Shown here piece after piece: positions 10,063-16,606 of a stretch of DNA of 20,000 nt. The notes beneath the pieces were generated by a model. That model made no database searches and had not been told where the DNA came from. It saw only the letters and a list, made by a program, of their open reading frames with translations. Source of the DNA: an uncultured virus (IMG/VR IMGVR_UViG_3300032560_000008) (Duplodnaviria > Heunggongvirae > Uroviricota > Caudoviricetes); the IMG/VR virus record IMGVR_UViG_3300032560_000008; one strand, given 5' to 3'. How positions within the stretch are numbered: the stretch's first letter is position 1; each line of letters opens with the position of its first letter. Position numbers and translations under genes: made by a program.

Positions 10063-10701
10063 CTATTTTTTACTTATTTTTTTCTTTTCAAACTTTTTCA
10101 TACCATTCTGAACATCTCTCATCATTTCATCTTTTTGATCTGGTGTCATATTTGATGGTGCTCCAGCATGAAATGTTTCTTTATCACCCCTTTCTGCCGC
10201 GGCTCTCATTTTGGTTCCGGAAATACCTGTTACATCTTCCGCGTCTGGATCTCTTTCACCTGCCGATACAACATTGATCCCTTTAAAATTATAATAGCCA
10301 TGGGCACCAGTTTGTCCATTATACTTGTGTATGAGATTCCGGAATCCTTCCACTCTATCTTGACCACCAACAACAGTTACATGTGTTACACCTTGTTTGT
10401 GAAGATTTGCAAGATGATGAAGCAAAGTTGGTTGTTCAACAGATGATGTAGATATATTCATATCTGGCCATGCTCTTTTGGCATGTTTGAGTTTTTGTTC
10501 AGGTGTGAGTGGATTTTTAGCATCATGAGAATGTGATAGTACTATTGAATGACTACCACCAACTTTTTTTGCTTCACTCTTTACTGTATCAATAACTTCT
10601 CCATGACCTTCCGTAGGAGGTTGGAATCGGACGGAAGGAGCAGTTACATGATGCTTTTCATATGATTCAAAAATGATCCTTTTAATTCTACTTAGAAGCA
10701 T
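10063..10701 (-). CDS. HIGH-superfamily cytidylyltransferase-like nucleotidyltransferase (start moved to MLLSRI)
   Basis: RFQPPTEGH (HxGH variant), KNPL, VVGGQDRV, SAGERDPD and ISGTKMR motifs. Confidence 0.85.
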   Translation of the reverse strand: MLLSRIKRIIFESYEKHHVTAPSVRFQPPTEGHGEVIDTVKSEAKKVGGSHSIVLSHSHDAKNPLTPEQKLKHAKRAWPDMNISTSSVEQPTLLHHLANLHKQGVTHVTVVGGQDRVEGFRNLIHKYNGQTGAHGYYNFKGINVVSAGERDPDAEDVTGISGTKMRAAAERGDKETFHAGAPSNMTPDQKDEMMRDVQNGMKKFEKKKISKK

Positions 10702-11917
10702 CAGAAGTCCCTTTCTTCTGAAATGCACCAGAACCAGTCAAATTGGCCTGAGCAAACCCACCTTCACCACGATTTACAAACTTGGTCATATTACCTTCTT
10801 TATCAACCGCAACAGCACCTTCAGGTAAAGTAGGTTTTCCATTGATGCTATTCTCAAACTTACTATTTTTGGCCATTACACCAGTAAGAATATTTTTGGC
10901 TTCTTGGAAATGATGATGAAGATCAAGTATTTTCTTGAAATGTTCTTTGTTGGCATTCACGTGATCTAATTTCTTAGAGAAATCTTGTTTCTTTCTATCA
11001 ATCGCTGCTTGTGTTTTAAGTTTAGAAATTTCCTTTTCATGTCGATCTTTTAGGAAATTCATATAACCTTCAGTAGAAGGTTTACCACCTTTTCGTACTT
11101 GATCATTTACATGAGATTCCAAAGCCGCTTCATGACCATGAATTGCCTCAAATGCTTCAGGCTTCATACTCTGATATGTTTTTCTAATTGCTTCTTTATG
11201 CATAGCAAATTTCTTTTGTTCTTCTGGAGTATAATTGTTTGTATTCACCTTTTGAGTAGGATCAATATTATTAACATCCGGATGATCTATGAATTCAGCT
11301 CTTCTTTTGGCACTCAAAGGTGTTGCCGACATATTCTGTAAAGGCCCTTTACCTTTATATTCTGTATGCATTACAACACCGATTTTTGAATTTGTTACTT
11401 TTCTTCCTTCAGCAGAATTTTTATCAGTAGAATATGTAATTGTATTTGGAGTAAAACTAATCTTTCCACCATTTTTCTTAATATCACCCTTTCCATGCAT
11501 CATATCACCTTGAAAAACACCACCAGTCTTTGGCATAATTTTTGGAAGATGATATAGTGCTTCTTTGAGTTTTGACACCAAACCTGGGGCATGACCATGG
11601 TTTCGTTCAATATCTTCATTTGTATAATTGATTTTTGGATTTTTATTAAAAGCAGATTTGGAAGCTACAAAGAATTTTCCAGTTTCTGGATGTGTTCCAT
11701 ATACTATACTTGGAGCACCATCATATTTTGTTGAAATATGAGTTGATGTTTCTTTCCCAAGAAGATGATTGTGCGCATCATCTAAAAATTTTGATGCTCT
11801 TCTTACACCTTCATGACCATCATAAAGAATATTATCTTCTAGATGACGAAGATGAGTGAGAGGTTTACCTGTAGCAGATTCTTCATTCTCTATAAGAAAA
11901 TTTCTAAATGTTAACAT
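10688..11917 (-). CDS. Conserved T4-like protein with ATP-dependent ligase-like covalent nucleotidyltransferase motifs
   Basis: HLxHLED N-motif, motif I TKYDGAP (KxDG), FQGDMM, late EGAV (motif IV-like) and KFVNR (motif V-like). Confidence 0.7.
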   Translation of the reverse strand: MLTFRNFLIENEESATGKPLTHLRHLEDNILYDGHEGVRRASKFLDDAHNHLLGKETSTHISTKYDGAPSIVYGTHPETGKFFVASKSAFNKNPKINYTNEDIERNHGHAPGLVSKLKEALYHLPKIMPKTGGVFQGDMMHGKGDIKKNGGKISFTPNTITYSTDKNSAEGRKVTNSKIGVVMHTEYKGKGPLQNMSATPLSAKRRAEFIDHPDVNNIDPTQKVNTNNYTPEEQKKFAMHKEAIRKTYQSMKPEAFEAIHGHEAALESHVNDQVRKGGKPSTEGYMNFLKDRHEKEISKLKTQAAIDRKKQDFSKKLDHVNANKEHFKKILDLHHHFQEAKNILTGVMAKNSKFENSINGKPTLPEGAVAVDKEGNMTKFVNRGEGGFAQANLTGSGAFQKKGTSDASK

Positions 11918-11918
11918 T

Positions 11919-12914
11919 TTATGAATGTCCTAAATGTTTTGCAAAATCTTGTAAATGGTCATCACGATCTAAATTTATAGGACTTCTAATTAAACCGTGT
12001 TTTCCATGAATTTGAAACATAACAGTTCTGGATCTTTTATTACCTTCTTGCTTTTGACGAATGGTCCATTTTCCTTTTCCTTTTAATCTTGGGAGTCCAA
12101 AACCAGTTTTATCTTTACTTCCTACTCTATATGTTCCATGACCTTCACCTATGTGAACAACATCAGCATCATGATCTTTCAAATACGCTTCAGCTGGTGA
12201 TAAATCCGGGTGTGGCATTGTAATGCTTCTTGCTCTACCTGAAGCAGTAGTTTCAACTGCATCCGGATCCGGATGATGTTTATTCATATATTCTAAAATA
12301 CCTCTTTCTTCTATTGCTTTAGCATATTCTGGTCTTGCATCTCGTAATTCATCGGGAATATGCCATCCCACCTTACCTGTTTTAGGATGTTTTCCAAATT
12401 TAATTGTACCTTGTCCAAGTGCCGCGGTTTCGTTTAGCTTTACTTCACCATTATATATAGCCCGGCCTTTATGAATTGTTCCTTTCTTTTTATTTAAAAA
12501 TGGGACATCTGTTCCAGCTGTAGAACCTGCAGGATTATGGCCGGGAGGTACAAGACCTATATTTCTACATCTATTAAAAAAATGTTTTTCATACTTATGG
12601 CCTTCATTTTCTGTTTGGGCCCCAGGCTTATCTAACTTTGAAATAGGCACAGTAATTTTTTTTCTTGAGCCAGGTCGACTTACTGTTACATGATGGACAC
12701 CTTTATCATCAATATGATGAGAATGTAATGTTACTTGTTCACCTACATTTAAATCATCATGTTTTGAGGCCATAATATGTGTGCCTTGCTTTGAATGCTT
12801 AGCAGCTCCGGACAAATATGGTTTTACATATTTTTCAAAATGACGATTGCCTACAAAACCAGAAGCCGTCATTTTAGATTCTGCAATGATTTGAAATTCA
12901 GTAAATTTTAACAT
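11919..12914 (-). CDS. Putative PD-(D/E)xK nuclease-fold protein with His-rich N-terminal domain
   Basis: GHKYE helix, then AGSTAGTDV, then GEVKL (E...D...ExK pattern). Confidence 0.55.
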   Translation of the reverse strand: MLKFTEFQIIAESKMTASGFVGNRHFEKYVKPYLSGAAKHSKQGTHIMASKHDDLNVGEQVTLHSHHIDDKGVHHVTVSRPGSRKKITVPISKLDKPGAQTENEGHKYEKHFFNRCRNIGLVPPGHNPAGSTAGTDVPFLNKKKGTIHKGRAIYNGEVKLNETAALGQGTIKFGKHPKTGKVGWHIPDELRDARPEYAKAIEERGILEYMNKHHPDPDAVETTASGRARSITMPHPDLSPAEAYLKDHDADVVHIGEGHGTYRVGSKDKTGFGLPRLKGKGKWTIRQKQEGNKRSRTVMFQIHGKHGLIRSPINLDRDDHLQDFAKHLGHS

Positions 12915-12927
12915 CTATTTTCAATCC

Positions 12928-13695
12928 CTATTGATGTCTGATAGTTTTAATTGTTGTTTGGCCTGTGTGATCATTATGTGTAACTATATGTGAATATAGT
13001 CTAACACCTGGATGATCTTCTTTGAGTTTAGCAAAATGTTCATGATTCCCCAAATCATCATCATAAAGATGAATTTCATTATAACCATGTTTCTTTATAA
13101 GATCTGATAATACTTTTCTTTTTCTATCACCTGTAGAAGTACCTTCAACATTCCCTGCTCTGTATACATGTGTTTTAGATATATCTATACCATATTTTTT
13201 CATCGTATGAGCAAATTTTTGCTTATCATCAAGATCTGATCGAGCAGTAAGTATTGAAGTATTATGACCAGAATTTTTCAATCTATTTAATAAATTGATC
13301 ATTTTTGGAATTGGTTTAGCAGTGCTTGCAAATTTCTTAGATGATTTAAAATCCTTGAAATCGTATCGTTCACCCGGATTTAATTTATTTTTATTAAATT
13401 GTTGATTAGACAAACTTTTTACAATATTGCCATTTGAATCACGAACATGGATTCTTAATTTTTTCGGATCATGTGCAAATAGTGTCTCGTCAACATCAAA
13501 AAAATGAGCAGTTTTTTGCACTGATTCTTCAAAATAAGCTTCAAGTTCTTTTGATACAACATCATTACCTTTGCCAAAAAAATGAGCAGTTGCTGCAACT
13601 GCATTAGGATCTCTTTTAATTGAATTAAAATGCTCTCTTTGATCTGGTGTCAATTCTTCAGAAAGAATATTTTTTAATTTAGAGAATGTTAGCAT
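12928..13695 (-). CDS. HAD-superfamily phosphatase (PNKP/RNA-repair HAD-like)
   Basis: Motif I FDVDETL, motif II ILTAR, motif III Lys (DRKRK), motif IV LYDDD. Confidence 0.85.
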   Translation of the reverse strand: MLTFSKLKNILSEELTPDQREHFNSIKRDPNAVAATAHFFGKGNDVVSKELEAYFEESVQKTAHFFDVDETLFAHDPKKLRIHVRDSNGNIVKSLSNQQFNKNKLNPGERYDFKDFKSSKKFASTAKPIPKMINLLNRLKNSGHNTSILTARSDLDDKQKFAHTMKKYGIDISKTHVYRAGNVEGTSTGDRKRKVLSDLIKKHGYNEIHLYDDDLGNHEHFAKLKEDHPGVRLYSHIVTHNDHTGQTTIKTIRHQ

Positions 13696-13730
13696 AAATT
13701 ACATCCTAAGCAATAAAAGGAATTTTGATC

Positions 13731-13738
13731 TATTTATA
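13731..13738 (-). promoter_or_regulatory. T4-type late promoter TATAAATA for the HAD/nuclease/ligase operon
   Basis: Perfect gp55 consensus about 35 nt upstream of ATG 13695, with TAGGA SD in between. Confidence 0.85.
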
Positions 13739-13774
13739 AAAAGAAAGGTCGACCCTTTCGAGCCGACCTTCTTT
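13738..13774 (-). terminator. Intrinsic terminator with GAAA tetraloop
   Basis: AAGGUCGGCUC-GAAA-GGGUCGACCUU (11 bp including 2 G-U) followed by UCUUUUU. Confidence 0.85.
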
Positions 13775-13884
13775 AAAAGCATACAATGCCGGGAGGAACC
13801 CCACCTATGATCCCCGACTGTTCCTTTGCTATTATAGTCTCTGTGCCTCTTACGCTTCATGAAGCGCATAATGTATGCTCATGT
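13738..13884 (-). ncRNA. Putative late-expressed structured small RNA (~145 nt)
   Basis: Own late promoter and terminator, GC-richer than flanks, closing stem AGCAUACA/UGUAUGCU, internal hairpin and two further complementary pairs; no SD-led ORF. Confidence 0.7.
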
Positions 13885-13889
13885 GAATT

Positions 13890-13897
13890 TATTTATA
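13890..13897 (-). promoter_or_regulatory. T4-type late promoter TATAAATA driving the putative ncRNA
   Basis: Perfect consensus in an AT-rich intergenic context with no CDS before the next terminator. Confidence 0.8.
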
Positions 13898-13933
13898 CAA
13901 TAAAATTGTTATTATTTTAAAATAATATTTTTT

Positions 13934-14143
13934 TTATTCAATAGCTTTGTAATCTTTATATCGGTCATCACGGTTACCAGGATTTAATCTTACAATATTC
14001 AAATTTTCCTTTCTGATGACTTCAAGAACACGATATGCTGCTCTATCACATGTTACTTGCCTAATAAGTACTCCTTCAAAATCTTCAATTTCATCTTGAA
14101 TAGCACATGAAATTAGTTTTGACAATCTTTCTCTGTCTACCAT
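13934..14143 (-). CDS. Hypothetical protein
   Basis: 69 aa, TAATG-coupled to the gp41 stop. Confidence 0.65.
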   Translation of the reverse strand: MVDRERLSKLISCAIQDEIEDFEGVLIRQVTCDRAAYRVLEVIRKENLNIVRLNPGNRDDRYKDYKAIE

Positions 14144-15546
14144 TATTTAAAATCCCTAAAATCTCGTGAAAACTTAGATTTCTTCTTCCCTCGTTCTGAA
14201 TCTTCGTGTCCAAAGCCAGAGTTGTCAAATATAGGCTTATCATCCATAATATCTTCTTGAGCAGATTGTTCAACATCATACAGTTTCATTTTAGGTTTAT
14301 CAACACCTATAACAAACCGTTTGTTGAAATTTAGATCATTGTAACGATTCTTAAGTTGTTTCACCATATATTGATTTAATGCTGCCAATTCTTCATTTGT
14401 CATAATAGCAAACATTAGATCGGCAGTTGCAGGGAGTCCAAATGATTCTGAAGTGTCACCTAGATCAACATCCGAACTGGAGTAACCACTACGAGTAGTC
14501 TGAGTAGCAGAGACAATAGGCACATCAAACTCTACGGCCAGACCTCTAAGTTCTTCTGCAATCGCTTTCACATACATGTATGTGTTTACATTTGATGTAT
14601 ATTTCAATCGAGATGAGGCACAGATGTTTAGATAATCAATATAGATGATGTCTGGTTTAAAGTTCTTTTTAATTTTCAATTCATTTAAAAGATACCTGAA
14701 ATTTGCAGAACCTGCAGAAGCAGTTGGATATTCCTTGATGATAAGTTTTCCAGGGGTCTTGGAACAAATTCTTTTGATCTTTTTGTCATATGCTTCTTTT
14801 GTAAGAACTGAAAGATCGTCCATAGTTACATCAAGAAGATTAGCATCAATTCGTTCTGCAATTCGTTCTTCACTCATTTCCATCGTGATATAAAGAACAT
14901 TTTTACCTTTCAAAAGATGTGATGCAGCAAAATGACACATCACTAGTGTCTTACCAACACCAGTGCCACCAAGTATAACATTAAGTGTTTTATTTGATAG
15001 ACCACCTTTTGTTATTAAATTAAAATATTCTAGATCAAATGGAATTTTATTTTCTACACGATGATAAAATTCATATCGAGCATCAGAATCCTCATCCCAG
15101 TTATGACCAATGGAAGAATCAAAACTTACTGCCAAAGCATCAGAAAGAAGTTGAGGAATAGAACCTTTTGATTTGATTTTATCTTGATTATCTAGAATTT
15201 GAATTGAAGCCATAATTGCATTATATACGGCCTTTTCTTGAACCCACTTTTCGGTGGATTCTGTAAGCCATTCTAAATTTGTTTCAGGATCAAATTCAAA
15301 TTTTTCAATTATTTCCTTACAATTTTTATAGGTTGTTTCGTCAATTTTATCCTTGTTTCTAAGTTCAATCTGAAGTACTTCTTGTGTTGGGAATGAATTA
15401 TACTTTTGAACATATGCTTCAATTAGCCCAAAACAAGTCTTTTCAAAATTATCAAGAAAATACTCAGACTTTAGAAAAGGAATTACTTTACGACCATAAT
15501 CTTCTCGGAAGACCAGATTACTAAGTACTACTCGTTCTATATTCAT
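14143..15546 (-). CDS. gp41: Replicative DNA helicase, T4 gp41-like (DnaB family)
   Basis: Walker A GGTGVGKT, YITMEM, IKEYPT, Walker B IYIDYL, AEELRGL, SESFGLPATAD and QLKNRY. Confidence 0.97.
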   Translation of the reverse strand: MNIERVVLSNLVFREDYGRKVIPFLKSEYFLDNFEKTCFGLIEAYVQKYNSFPTQEVLQIELRNKDKIDETTYKNCKEIIEKFEFDPETNLEWLTESTEKWVQEKAVYNAIMASIQILDNQDKIKSKGSIPQLLSDALAVSFDSSIGHNWDEDSDARYEFYHRVENKIPFDLEYFNLITKGGLSNKTLNVILGGTGVGKTLVMCHFAASHLLKGKNVLYITMEMSEERIAERIDANLLDVTMDDLSVLTKEAYDKKIKRICSKTPGKLIIKEYPTASAGSANFRYLLNELKIKKNFKPDIIYIDYLNICASSRLKYTSNVNTYMYVKAIAEELRGLAVEFDVPIVSATQTTRSGYSSSDVDLGDTSESFGLPATADLMFAIMTNEELAALNQYMVKQLKNRYNDLNFNKRFVIGVDKPKMKLYDVEQSAQEDIMDDKPIFDNSGFGHEDSERGKKKSKFSRDFRDFK

Positions 15547-15562: not shown

Positions 15563-16606
15563 TCAGAAAGTTTCTTCTGTATTCATAATTTTCTTATCAG
15601 AGAAAGAATACTTATTTTTGATCCACGTTGCAAAATCGGTAGTTGATAAAATATCCTTCCAGAATTCTGAATTGTTAATGAAGTCTCCTGCTCTCATATT
15701 TGATCCAAGTTCACCCGTAGTCCTATCGACCTTGCAATACCAACCATTCTTGGGCTTTGCAATATATCCACCTTCTAGCGCTAGATCAAGAAGACCAGAC
15801 CAACGATTGATACCAGAATCAAAATTTACTGTAATTGGAATCTTAGACTTTTCACGAACAAGCCGAGACTTTTCAATATTGATAATAAAATGATACCCTA
15901 AAAGATCCTTATCATCCTTATCTTGTTGACGACCGATAATCCAAATATCATTTGCAGAGTAGTATACTCCAGTTCCGCCTGACACAATTGGTTTAGAATA
16001 CATCTCTTGTGTCATATAGATATGATTGACCACAACCATAGGAATATCTTTTAAGGTAAGATGTGGTGTCACCATACGGAATAGCGACTTAAGTTGCTTA
16101 GCACGAGTCATATCTGCGGCAGATTTACCTGCCTCAGCATCATCTACTTCCTTCTTTGATGCAAGATTGCCAACGGAATCAACAACAATCATCACACGAT
16201 CTTCACGCTTGATTTCCTTAAGTTGTCTCATAATATCAAACTTAAGTTCCTCAATATCCGTAATAGGAGTATGAACAACAGAATTCATATCAATATCAAA
16301 TGATGAGAAATATGATTCAGGTGTTCCAAATTCTGAATCATAAAATAGAATAATTCCATCCTTATATTTCTTAAGGAAAGCAGAGGCCATCAAAAGAGAA
16401 AAAGCAGTCTTGAAGTGCTTTGATGGTGCTGCAAGAACAGTAAGACCTGGCATGAGACCACCATCAATGGAACCGGAAAGGGCAACATTAATCAGCGGAA
16501 CAGTAGTTGGAATCATATCCTTCTTGCCGTATACCTTACTGTCCGTAAGAGTTGCAGTTGCATCAATCGTTGAATTCTTAATAAGACGTGCTTTTATATC
16601 AGACAT
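15563..16606 (-). CDS. uvsX: RecA-like recombinase UvsX
   Basis: NVALSG, Walker A variant APSKHFKT, YDSEFG, DSVGNLASKKE, DMTRAK and SGGTG; SD GGAG. Confidence 0.97.
   Translation of the reverse strand: MSDIKARLIKNSTIDATATLTDSKVYGKKDMIPTTVPLINVALSGSIDGGLMPGLTVLAAPSKHFKTAFSLLMASAFLKKYKDGIILFYDSEFGTPESYFSSFDIDMNSVVHTPITDIEELKFDIMRQLKEIKREDRVMIVVDSVGNLASKKEVDDAEAGKSAADMTRAKQLKSLFRMVTPHLTLKDIPMVVVNHIYMTQEMYSKPIVSGGTGVYYSANDIWIIGRQQDKDDKDLLGYHFIINIEKSRLVREKSKIPITVNFDSGINRWSGLLDLALEGGYIAKPKNGWYCKVDRTTGELGSNMRAGDFINNSEFWKDILSTTDFATWIKNKYSFSDKKIMNTEETF

Follow-up and report, generated by a model that had tools for sequence, protein, structure and literature searches.

The locus considered here raises the question of whether a short stretch of DNA lying between protein genes of an uncultured lake phage of T4 type is an independent gene for a structured RNA and, if it is, what such an RNA might do. 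The DNA analysed, referred to below as the window, comprises 20,000 nucleotides (nt) of IMG/VR record IMGVR_UViG_3300032560_000008 (Caudoviricetes), a viral record of 31.4 kb which is estimated to be 18% complete, and the element in question, at 13731-13897 on the minus strand, is present once in that record. An earlier note, prepared from the sequence alone, had proposed a discrete structured RNA of no known family between a late-type promoter box and a terminator, and every coordinate which it gave for this interval is correct when the minus strand is read. That proposal is supported by covariation among relatives and by the null result of the Rfam 15 search: on this comparative evidence the element is a real, autonomous gene for a structured RNA of about 145 nt, of a family absent from Rfam 15 and from the literature searched, and it is probably expressed late. 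Comparison of the homologous sequences establishes the family, its fold, the conserved succession of promoter, RNA and terminator, and the independence of the RNA from the genes downstream.

The limits of the element are set by signals of the T4 late type. PMC2988020 describes the T4 late promoter as an 8-bp TATA box lying about one helical turn upstream of the start, and TATAAAT is quoted as a late-promoter sequence in PMC3037559; a T4-type late unit is understood here as one having such an 8-bp TATA box (TATAAATA) about one helical turn from the start, without a -35 element. The box TATAAATA occurs only twice in the window, both copies flanking the RNA and both lying on its coding strand, and since two copies is the chance level (shuffle mean 1.9), the weight rests on the placement of the boxes and on their conservation in relatives. 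In the 3' signal, AAGGUCGGCUC-GAAA-GGGUCGACCUU at 13770-13745 forms 11 pairs, including two G-U pairs, and UUUCUUUU comes next; the whole has the GC-rich hairpin and U-tract of an intrinsic terminator, and it is the longest terminator-like site between 10000 and 17000 (the scan counts 12 pairs). From the promoter box we infer a start at the upstream copy and accumulation of the transcript late in infection, and the late-promoter geometry given in PMC2988020 would place that start a few bases before P1, the closing stem of the RNA, giving a transcript of about 146 nt.

The body of the element also differs in composition from its surroundings, as had been noticed earlier. Its GC content is 0.457 (13739-13889), whereas the window as a whole has 0.355 and the flanks of the element have 0.28-0.29, and a value at least as high is reached by just 1.9% of 151-nt segments. 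The minimum free energy of the 151-nt RNA is -47.8 kcal/mol, compared with -35.5 +/- 3.9 kcal/mol for shuffled sequences (z = -3.17), and none of 200 shuffles is as low.

Homologues were found by several routes. An 18-mer from the RNA core matched one further viral contig, L082 (loci are denoted here by L numbers), in which TATAAATA, the RNA, the terminator and TATAAATA stand in the same order, again after the helicase gene gp41; there the closing stem and the first hairpin are built of other letters through compensatory changes, and the flanking open reading frames (ORFs) are unrelated to those of the window. A covariance model derived from the window alone (R1) gave 31 matches in 82 sources which had been gathered through the DUF6267 gene, all of them on the DUF6267 strand and upstream of that gene. 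A rebuilt model (R2) returned the same 31 as full-length matches with E <= 3e-10, and both models match the window over the full length of 13739-13889; two weak R2 rows (E = 0.53) were discarded. A degenerate core pattern was found in at least 119 viral stretches of IMG/VR, and all 80 of the 80 loci fetched give full-length R2 matches, whereas the same pattern, found in at least 120 stretches of 596 Gb of bacterial and archaeal genomes, led to a real member in one of 80 loci fetched. The latter is L225, a 1.7-kb contig binned into a metagenome-assembled genome; the other 79 loci were chance matches without an R2 match. Since the viral and bacterial loci share the motif and differ so widely in their R2 matches, the model must recognise far more than the motif, and the comparison shows, at the level of the sequence collections, that the RNA family belongs to phages.

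The members are uncultured T4-type (Kyanoviridae-like) viral contigs. In total, 78 distinct sequences were obtained from 111 loci, some of which are one contig fetched twice, and covariation was evaluated on 71 distinct sequences. The collection of relatives and the covariation analysis which the earlier note had called for thus yielded homologues and strong covariation. Other searches were negative: blastn in its distant mode with 13650-14000 gave no match in 50,697 phage records, relatives of the downstream HAD protein gave one stretch fitting the pattern and none that was confirmed, and R2 gave no match in the whole records of the cultured phages Melnitz-3 and S-MS29 or, with filters off, in the gp41 regions of Melnitz-3, S-MS29 and HTVC008M.

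The alignments show the RNA to be a four-way junction composed of P1, P2, a variable arm (P2a) and P3, the last having a bulge and a 3-bp extension (P3a) capped by UGGGGUU. The closing stem originally proposed, AGCAUACA (13879-13872) with UGUAUGCU (13785-13778), is confirmed, as is the hairpin UGCGCUU-CAUG-AAGCGUA at 13868-13851, in which all seven pairs have compensatory changes in relatives. Over the 71 distinct sequences, 94.5% of the cells of the model are standard pairs, whereas shuffling lowers the figure to 65.3% and sliding the partners to 43-50%. Changes on both sides are seen in 35 of the 37 modelled pairs, and none of 500 shuffles matches any of the five measures used. The core of the terminator behaves in the same manner, with changes on both sides in 10 of 10 stem pairs, and a smaller motif-independent set of sequences gives the same picture of covariation. 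In a scan which is independent of the structure model, the top 15 column pairs ranked by mutual information with average product correction (MI-APC) all lie inside the proposed helices. An unfitted MAFFT alignment of 27 sequences, given to RNAalifold, yields P3, P3a and the terminator, but neither P1 nor P2, both of which MAFFT misaligns.

The P3a stem was missed in the earlier note and emerged from the mutual-information scan and the alignment. The pair which flanks GG-UGGGGUU-CC covaries across the 71 sequences (CG in 33, AU in 24, UA in 12, other in 2) and stands fifth when all column pairs are ranked by MI-APC. A G-C pair is replaced by A-U at the second position of the stem in L337 and L345 and at the third in L005 and L008. 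An additional hairpin is inserted at the site of the P3 bulge in L364, L337 and L345, and the P2a segment, folded alone, forms a hairpin of at least 3 bp in 51 of 78 distinct members, the segment of the window folding to 0 kcal/mol. The unpaired letters which are conserved, namely the purine-rich strands G-W-GGCA-M after P2 and GGAAY before P3 and the loop UGGGGUU, lie in the junctions and in one loop, a pattern typical of RNAs that are read by their shape. In the neighbourhood of the first of these, alignment columns 50 and 62 (about 13848 and 13839 in the window) are linked by identity, not complementarity, the variable base of G-W-GGCA tending to equal a later base (GAG...AGAG, GUG...AGUG, GCG...GAGCC), in a region which is poorly aligned.

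The earlier note had also described two interleaved pairings, giving either a pseudoknot or alternative conformers. Both are present in this sequence, and one of them, GUCGGG/CCCGGC, is the strongly backed P3; the other, AGGAAC (13825-13820) with GUUCCU (13799-13794), finds no support in relatives, and the pseudoknot or the alternative conformers are not supported either. Covariation is absent from this second pairing, its outer pair is unpaired in 52 of the 71 sequences, its last pair is mostly U-G in the same set, and it competes with the covarying P3a for the CC of GUUCCU. The GGAA/UUCC core never varies and so is uninformative either way. Zero nucleotides separate GUUCCU from CCCGGC in this sequence, and by our reading such a linker is too short to span the other stem in the geometry of a classical H-type pseudoknot. 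A tertiary contact between GGAA and UUCC may nevertheless form.

None of the known classes of RNA compared with it accounts for the element. The window has 0 matches in Rfam 15 at gathering score, and in E-value mode the 401 nt of 13600-14000 return noise, the best being IS102, whose 20.4 bits fall short of its threshold of 46 (E = 0.26). Among 19 member loci the sole Rfam 15 match is a tRNA gene beside the RNA copy of L364 (L364:2909-2995, minus strand, 62.5 bits), which stands on the opposite strand to that copy, 5 nt from its 3' end. The claim that the RNA is not a tRNA stands: ARAGORN finds 0 tRNA or tmRNA genes in the window, and although the RNA shares a four-way junction with tRNA, its P2 has 7 bp and a loop of 3-7 nt, and its P3 has a bulge and a 3-bp extension. 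Comparisons by eye with 5S ribosomal RNA, signal recognition particle RNA, the substrate site of the hairpin ribozyme and CsrA sites were rejected, since positions do not correspond and there is no Rfam match. The RNA is not described in the literature searched, the coverage of which excluded subscription journals and supplements.

The positions of the elements of the fold, of the signals around it and of the neighbouring genes are collected in Table 1.

Table 1. Features of the RNA gene and of its neighbourhood, with positions in the window
Feature	Position	Strand	Basis or remark
Late-promoter box 1 (TATAAATA)	13890-13897	minus	perfect box; 9 nt separate it from P1
Predicted primary transcript, about 146 nt	13739-13884	minus	5' end from T4 late-promoter geometry, 3' end from U-tract
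P1, 5' strand (GAGCAUACA)	13872-13880	minus	9 of 9 helix pairs changed on both sides, 71 distinct sequences
P2 hairpin UGCGCUU-CAUG-AAGCGUA	13851-13868	minus	7/7 pairs compensatory; 95.6% of cells paired
Junction J2/2a GAGGCAC	13843-13849	minus	family consensus G-W-GGCA-M; alignments
Variable arm P2a	13826-13842	minus	weak in the window, at most 3 bp (CUA/UAG); folding of the isolated segment
Junction J2a/3 GGAAC	13820-13824	minus	family GGAAY; GGAA identical in 27/27 (MAFFT, motif-independent set)
P3, 5' strand GUCGGG	13813-13818	minus	100% of cells paired; 4 of 6 pairs compensatory
P3 5' bulge GAUCAU	13807-13812	minus	4-6 nt across the family; alignments
P3a AGG/CCU closing the 7-nt loop UGGGGUU	13794-13806	minus	A13806-G-G13804 with C13796-C-U13794
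P3, 3' strand CCCGGC	13788-13793	minus	partner of GUCGGG
P1, 3' strand (UGUAUGCUU)	13777-13785	minus	partner of GAGCAUACA
Intrinsic terminator: 11-bp stem, GAAA loop, U-tract	13739-13770	minus	covariation of core stem; conservation of T-tract
Late-promoter box 2 (TATAAATA)	13731-13738	minus	after the terminator; precedes the downstream genes
UvsX-like recombinase gene	15563-16606	minus	ORF and family scans
gp41/DnaB-type helicase gene	14143-15546	minus	PHROG 19, E = 2.8e-123
69-codon ORF, no family	13934-14143	minus	between gp41 and the RNA element; unrelated to c1
HAD-family phosphatase gene, 255 aa	12928-13695	minus	first gene 3' of the RNA; Pfam Acid_phosphat_B, E = 2.3e-8; PHROG 415 'polynucleotide kinase', E = 1.4e-10
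331-codon ORF	11919-12914	minus	without Pfam or PHROG family
DUF6267 protein gene, 409 aa, ligase-like nucleotidyltransferase	10688-11917	minus	Pfam DUF6267, E = 8.6e-89

The layout of promoter, RNA and terminator is conserved among the members. The identification of TATAAATA at 13897-13890 as a T4-type late-promoter box agrees with the sequence of such boxes and with the presence of NTAAATA just 5' of the RNA in 76 of the 77 evaluable distinct members, where the box, in 48 cases the perfect TATAAATA and in 18 cases ACTAAATA, ends mostly 7-9 nt before P1. At the other end, a run of at least four T closes 77 of 78 distinct members. As for the surroundings, gp41 lies upstream on the same strand in 72 of the 78, while the first gene downstream falls into 28 different clusters, most of them without a Pfam or PHROG function, and from this diversity it follows that the RNA is autonomous and is not a leader. 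The suggestion that it heads a late cassette is not supported, for the same reason and also because a late box, which stands within 70 nt downstream of the terminator in 56 of 75 evaluable members, is lacking there in the other 19 (L134, L113, L148, L096 and about 15 others). By eye, most of these 19 have a sigma-70-like promoter instead (TTTACA-N17-TATAAT), which leads into small genes; an RNA with a late promoter can therefore precede genes of early type.

The RNA is not, on the other hand, a fixed component of this neighbourhood. As a control for the bias of the motif search, the 80 nearest relatives of the gp41 C-terminus were collected, and in the 67 which have at least 900 nt downstream the RNA is present in 12. 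These 12 lie mostly in one gp41 neighbourhood of a tree built by the unweighted pair group method with arithmetic mean (UPGMA) on p-distances, whereas the closest gp41 relatives of the window, L327, L328 and L357, are without the RNA. Because the tree carries no support values, the history which it suggests, that of mostly one clade with losses, is tentative. In L328, which has no RNA, a terminator and TATAAATA (L328:2094-2175) come after the stop of gp41, and then a 360-codon gene and DUF6267; since the terminator and the box stand there alone, the RNA gene behaves as an insertion/deletion cassette. On these comparisons it is an accessory module, gained or deleted where the replication genes give way to a variable region.

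The only consistent neighbour besides gp41 is a protein of about 65 residues, here called c1, which has the motif LN-GGGFDGWTP-FF, belongs to no family and is encoded directly upstream of the RNA in most members (for example L073:3165-3377). Of the 67 motif-independent loci, 12 have both c1 and the RNA and 53 have neither; c1 stands without the RNA in two (L367 and L373) and the RNA without c1 in none. The RNA-less L328 is without c1. When ORFs are called permissively, c1 is absent from five distinct RNA sequences which have sufficient upstream DNA, represented by the window, L002, L003/L147, L007 and L091/L161. A hidden Markov model (HMM) of c1 has no match in the window or in the gp41 regions of Melnitz-3, S-MS29 and HTVC008M, and a c1-like ORF which had seemed by eye to be present in HTVC008M was dropped on this account. 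The AlphaFold2 (AF2) model of c1 (pLDDT 84.5) has three strands and helices, and its comparison with known structures is uninformative (YaiA at best, with Z 5.2; E >= 0.07 in Foldseek). The association of c1 with the RNA across these loci is striking, but it is confounded by relatedness, since the RNA-positive loci cluster together.

Assuming that the gene is transcribed as its signals suggest, its function becomes a matter of weighing probabilities. The reading which we prefer, with a probability of roughly 0.55 on the comparative evidence, is that the RNA is read by its shape, is bound by protein and acts in trans; it probably does not regulate the genes beside it. The T4-type late box would direct a start a few bases before P1 and the strong intrinsic terminator would end the transcript, so that the primary transcript would be essentially the folded RNA; the second promoter, past the terminator, would restart transcription for the following gene; and the RNA would act in trans by shape, its most probable task late in infection being to bind one or more proteins as a platform or decoy.

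Several points weigh against this reading. The timing, ends and stability of the transcript are inferred, and no RNA run is among the 23 lake and freshwater metagenome runs listed as sources of the sequence. The sole consistent neighbour, c1, is absent from the window, and its fold match is uninformative. Kinship among the sequences inflates statistics which are based on shuffles. Furthermore, 80 of the sequences were gathered with a pattern which requires GGAA and GGTGGGGTTCC, and the invariance of those letters in that set is thus a matter of construction; in the motif-independent sets GGAA is found in 27 of 27 sequences and the 11-mer GGTGGGGTTCC in 22 of 27, being altered in L005 and L008, where the loop is changed too (UGGUGGUU), and in L337 and L345, where only the stem is changed, so the UGGGGUU loop differs in L005 and L008 alone. 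Finally, a 7-nt UGGGGUU loop fits a base-pairing seed equally well.

A more specific form of the preferred reading can be envisaged, in which the RNA would be one half of a small mobile module of c1 and RNA, gained and lost by T4-type lake phages, and would either form a ribonucleoprotein (RNP) late in infection or be a decoy or substrate tied to the conserved ligase-like and phosphatase genes, countering a host defence that targets RNA or re-tooling host translation. We regard this as conceivable but doubtful.

The explanation which competes best with a trans-acting RNA is that the element is the 3' end, or a 3' untranslated region (3'-UTR) element, of a gp41-c1 unit, as a structured tail, a binding site for c1 or a 3'-UTR-derived RNA, with the late box serving as a second route of expression. 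That the RNA directly follows gp41, on its strand, in 72 of the 78 distinct members, and also follows c1, would suit such an element, as would the co-occurrence of c1 and RNA in the 12 loci described above with no case of the RNA alone, and the retention of a terminator right after gp41 in the RNA-less L328. A mere 3'-UTR element, however, would have no need of the late box which precedes P1 in all but one of the evaluable members, and the two genes can be separated in both directions, the RNA being found without c1 in the window, in the group of L002, L003 and L007 and in L091, and c1 without the RNA in L367 and L373; the co-occurrence itself is open to the confounding by relatedness already mentioned. 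A role of this kind is unlikely.

The stand-alone promoter and terminator, together with a conserved 7-nt loop displayed on a covarying stem, are also what would be expected of a base-pairing small RNA in which UGGGGUU is the seed for AACCCCA-like sites in phage or host mRNAs. Such sites are not enriched in the window: AACCCCA occurs 3 times, one occurrence being the complement of the RNA gene itself, against 1.6 expected, and 40 of 200 shuffles reach this count. Moreover, a four-way junction with conserved junction nucleotides exceeds what a small RNA usually needs in order to present a seed, and we consider this explanation improbable.

The genes which follow the RNA in the window suggest a further alternative, which the earlier note had raised in suggesting that the RNA could be the substrate or guide of enzymes encoded downstream. 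The minus-strand order is UvsX-like recombinase, gp41, 69-codon ORF, RNA element, HAD phosphatase, 331-codon ORF and DUF6267. The DUF6267 protein has K64-x-D66-G67 invariant in 27 aligned sequences, as in the KxDG of ligase motif I, and its AF2 model (pLDDT 84) has RNA ligases as its top matches in VIA-align, namely Naegleria 5cot (Z 8.7), T4 Rnl2 (7.8), REL1 (7.4), Trl1 (7.2) and T4 Rnl1 (6.7), in alignments covering 180-205 residues, although Z-scores of 6.7-8.7 lie in the middling range according to the tool's own note. The best Foldseek matches are DNA ligases and are weak (E = 0.04-0.3), and searches of the PDB by sequence, with the single sequence and with a profile, gave nothing meaningful. 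In relatives, DUF6267 and a cytidylyltransferase-like domain (PHROG 3041/395) are fused into one protein of 600-700 residues (for example L024:4992-6980), and in the window the C-terminal part is a separate overlapping ORF at 10063-10728 on the minus strand. To judge from the motif and the model, DUF6267 looks like an ATP-dependent nucleotidyltransferase of the RNA-ligase type, and together with the polynucleotide-kinase-like HAD phosphatase it looks like the chemistry of nucleic-acid end processing. A literature search for 'DUF6267', with subscription journals and supplements outside its coverage, returned zero papers.

Such enzymes might use the RNA as substrate, cofactor or decoy, the RNA being cut and re-ligated or diverting a host defence that cleaves RNA, and within 3.5 kb downstream of the RNA DUF6267 is indeed found in 47 of 78 distinct members and a HAD phosphatase in 17, the HAD protein of the window matching PHROG 415. 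DUF6267 is nonetheless common in cultured Kyanoviridae, being found in 471 phage records, and the RNA is absent from Melnitz-3 and S-MS29 and from the gp41 region of HTVC008M; a link between RNA and enzyme is for that reason not obligatory. The presence of the RNA in only 12 of the 67 nearest gp41 relatives, the occurrence of DUF6267 without the RNA in L328, the unrelated small genes which come next in the L113-type subgroup and the middling scores behind the ligase assignment argue in the same direction. The original suggestion is thus not supported, a dedicated link between the RNA and DUF6267 would be a possibility, and a role in end healing and sealing is quite improbable.

A conserved and complex fold placed directly before an intrinsic terminator is also the classical layout of a cis-acting leader or riboswitch, in which a ligand decides between a stop at the terminator and read-through, and terminating riboswitches likewise show conservation of a multi-helix junction and of unpaired nucleotides. 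They differ from the present RNA in that its terminator is independent of the fold, a promoter follows and there is no conservation of the genes downstream. The terminator has a complete stem of its own, which is separated from P1 by a variable spacer of about 2-25 nt (by our reading), and no resemblance between the strands of P1 and terminator that would permit an antiterminator was found by inspection. The promoter box after the terminator in 56 of 75 members, with the sigma-70-like sequences seen by eye in most of the others, also speaks against a riboswitch, as do the downstream genes, which in their 28 clusters have no common function. Neither the single downstream function nor the competing terminator of a riboswitch is found, the competition between P1 and terminator being judged by eye, and we hold this explanation to be very improbable.

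Catalysis, for example by a new class of self-cleaving ribozyme, is just as improbable. Self-cleaving ribozymes are often found in phages, and a multi-helix junction with highly conserved unpaired nucleotides would suit one, but no ribozyme family of Rfam 15 is matched, cleavage is not obviously needed by a unit which has a promoter and a terminator to itself, and a conserved candidate for the cleavage site was not found. The chance that the element encodes a small protein is negligible: an ATG-initiated ORF of 56 codons (13699-13869) does overlap it in the window, but that ORF crosses the terminator and has no PHROG match, overlapping sense ORFs range from 0 to 128 codons across the 78 distinct members with 6 having none, so that the conserved ORF which would have spoken for a protein is missing, the listed ORFs, by our reading, pass through the invariant core in two frames or more (GGVPP and VGFRP), and the substitutions compensate pairing, not coding.

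Two observations on the neighbouring proteins stand apart from these questions. The sole PDB sequence matches of the 331-residue protein encoded at 11919-12914 (minus) are two chains named 'RNA ligase1', with non-significant E-values of 0.26-0.36, and in L082 the gp41 gene (L082:3319-5556, minus) is much longer, with ORFs of 581 and 146 codons and extra sequence in the P-loop region and in a later motif, which by eye looks like one or more intein insertions.

The nearest cultured relatives of the gp41 protein, at about 60% identity, are Kyanoviridae, namely cyanomyoviruses, the OM43 phage Melnitz and the pelagimyophage HTVC008M, and it is with the RNAs of T4-type phages that the present family is most naturally compared. 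The rnaC and rnaD RNAs of T4 (species 1 and 2 RNAs, of 139 and 119 nt) are likewise discrete small RNAs of a T4-type phage which are not tRNAs; to our knowledge no function has been assigned to them. Both arise by processing of tRNA precursor transcripts and not from a late promoter of their own, and, unlike the present RNA, they sit in a tRNA gene cluster. Neither is matched by R2 when the model is run with filters off over positions 68000-76000 of T4, its best result there being a terminator-like stretch (E = 0.14). Structured RNAs are also present in Kyanoviridae themselves: glnA, manA, wcaG and PhotoRC-II are known non-coding RNAs of T4-like cyanophages and are described as cis-regulatory in PMC10665884. 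The present RNA differs from them in having no match in Rfam 15, a promoter and terminator of its own, and variable neighbours.

Stand-alone structured RNAs which serve as protein-bound scaffolds, such as the phi29 pRNA and the bacterial Y RNAs, of which YrlA is an example, offer an analogy to the role preferred here. The genes of Y RNAs adjoin RNA-repair genes such as RtcB, an arrangement which the ligase-like gene of the window loosely resembles. Neither sequence nor model similarity to these RNAs is seen, no such Rfam family being matched here; general Pfam and PHROG scans of the neighbouring proteins did not report the Ro/TROVE family, and we know of no pRNA used in DNA packaging by T4-type phages.

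Phages have few stand-alone structured RNAs, and the ones that are understood, such as the phi29 pRNA, have revealed unexpected mechanisms. The present family offers strong covariation, a clean late layout of promoter, RNA and terminator, 78 distinct sequences and at least 119 viral contigs bearing the motif, and its presence and absence among close relatives suits both comparative and genetic tests. A construct of about 145 nt, a candidate partner in c1 and the ligase-like enzymes nearby make the RNA testable. If it is merely a stable by-product or a generic protein sponge, it would be one more orphan RNA motif; if it forms an RNP or counters host defence, it would represent a new functional class of phage RNA and open a new chapter in the biology of the abundant T4-type phages of aquatic habitats.

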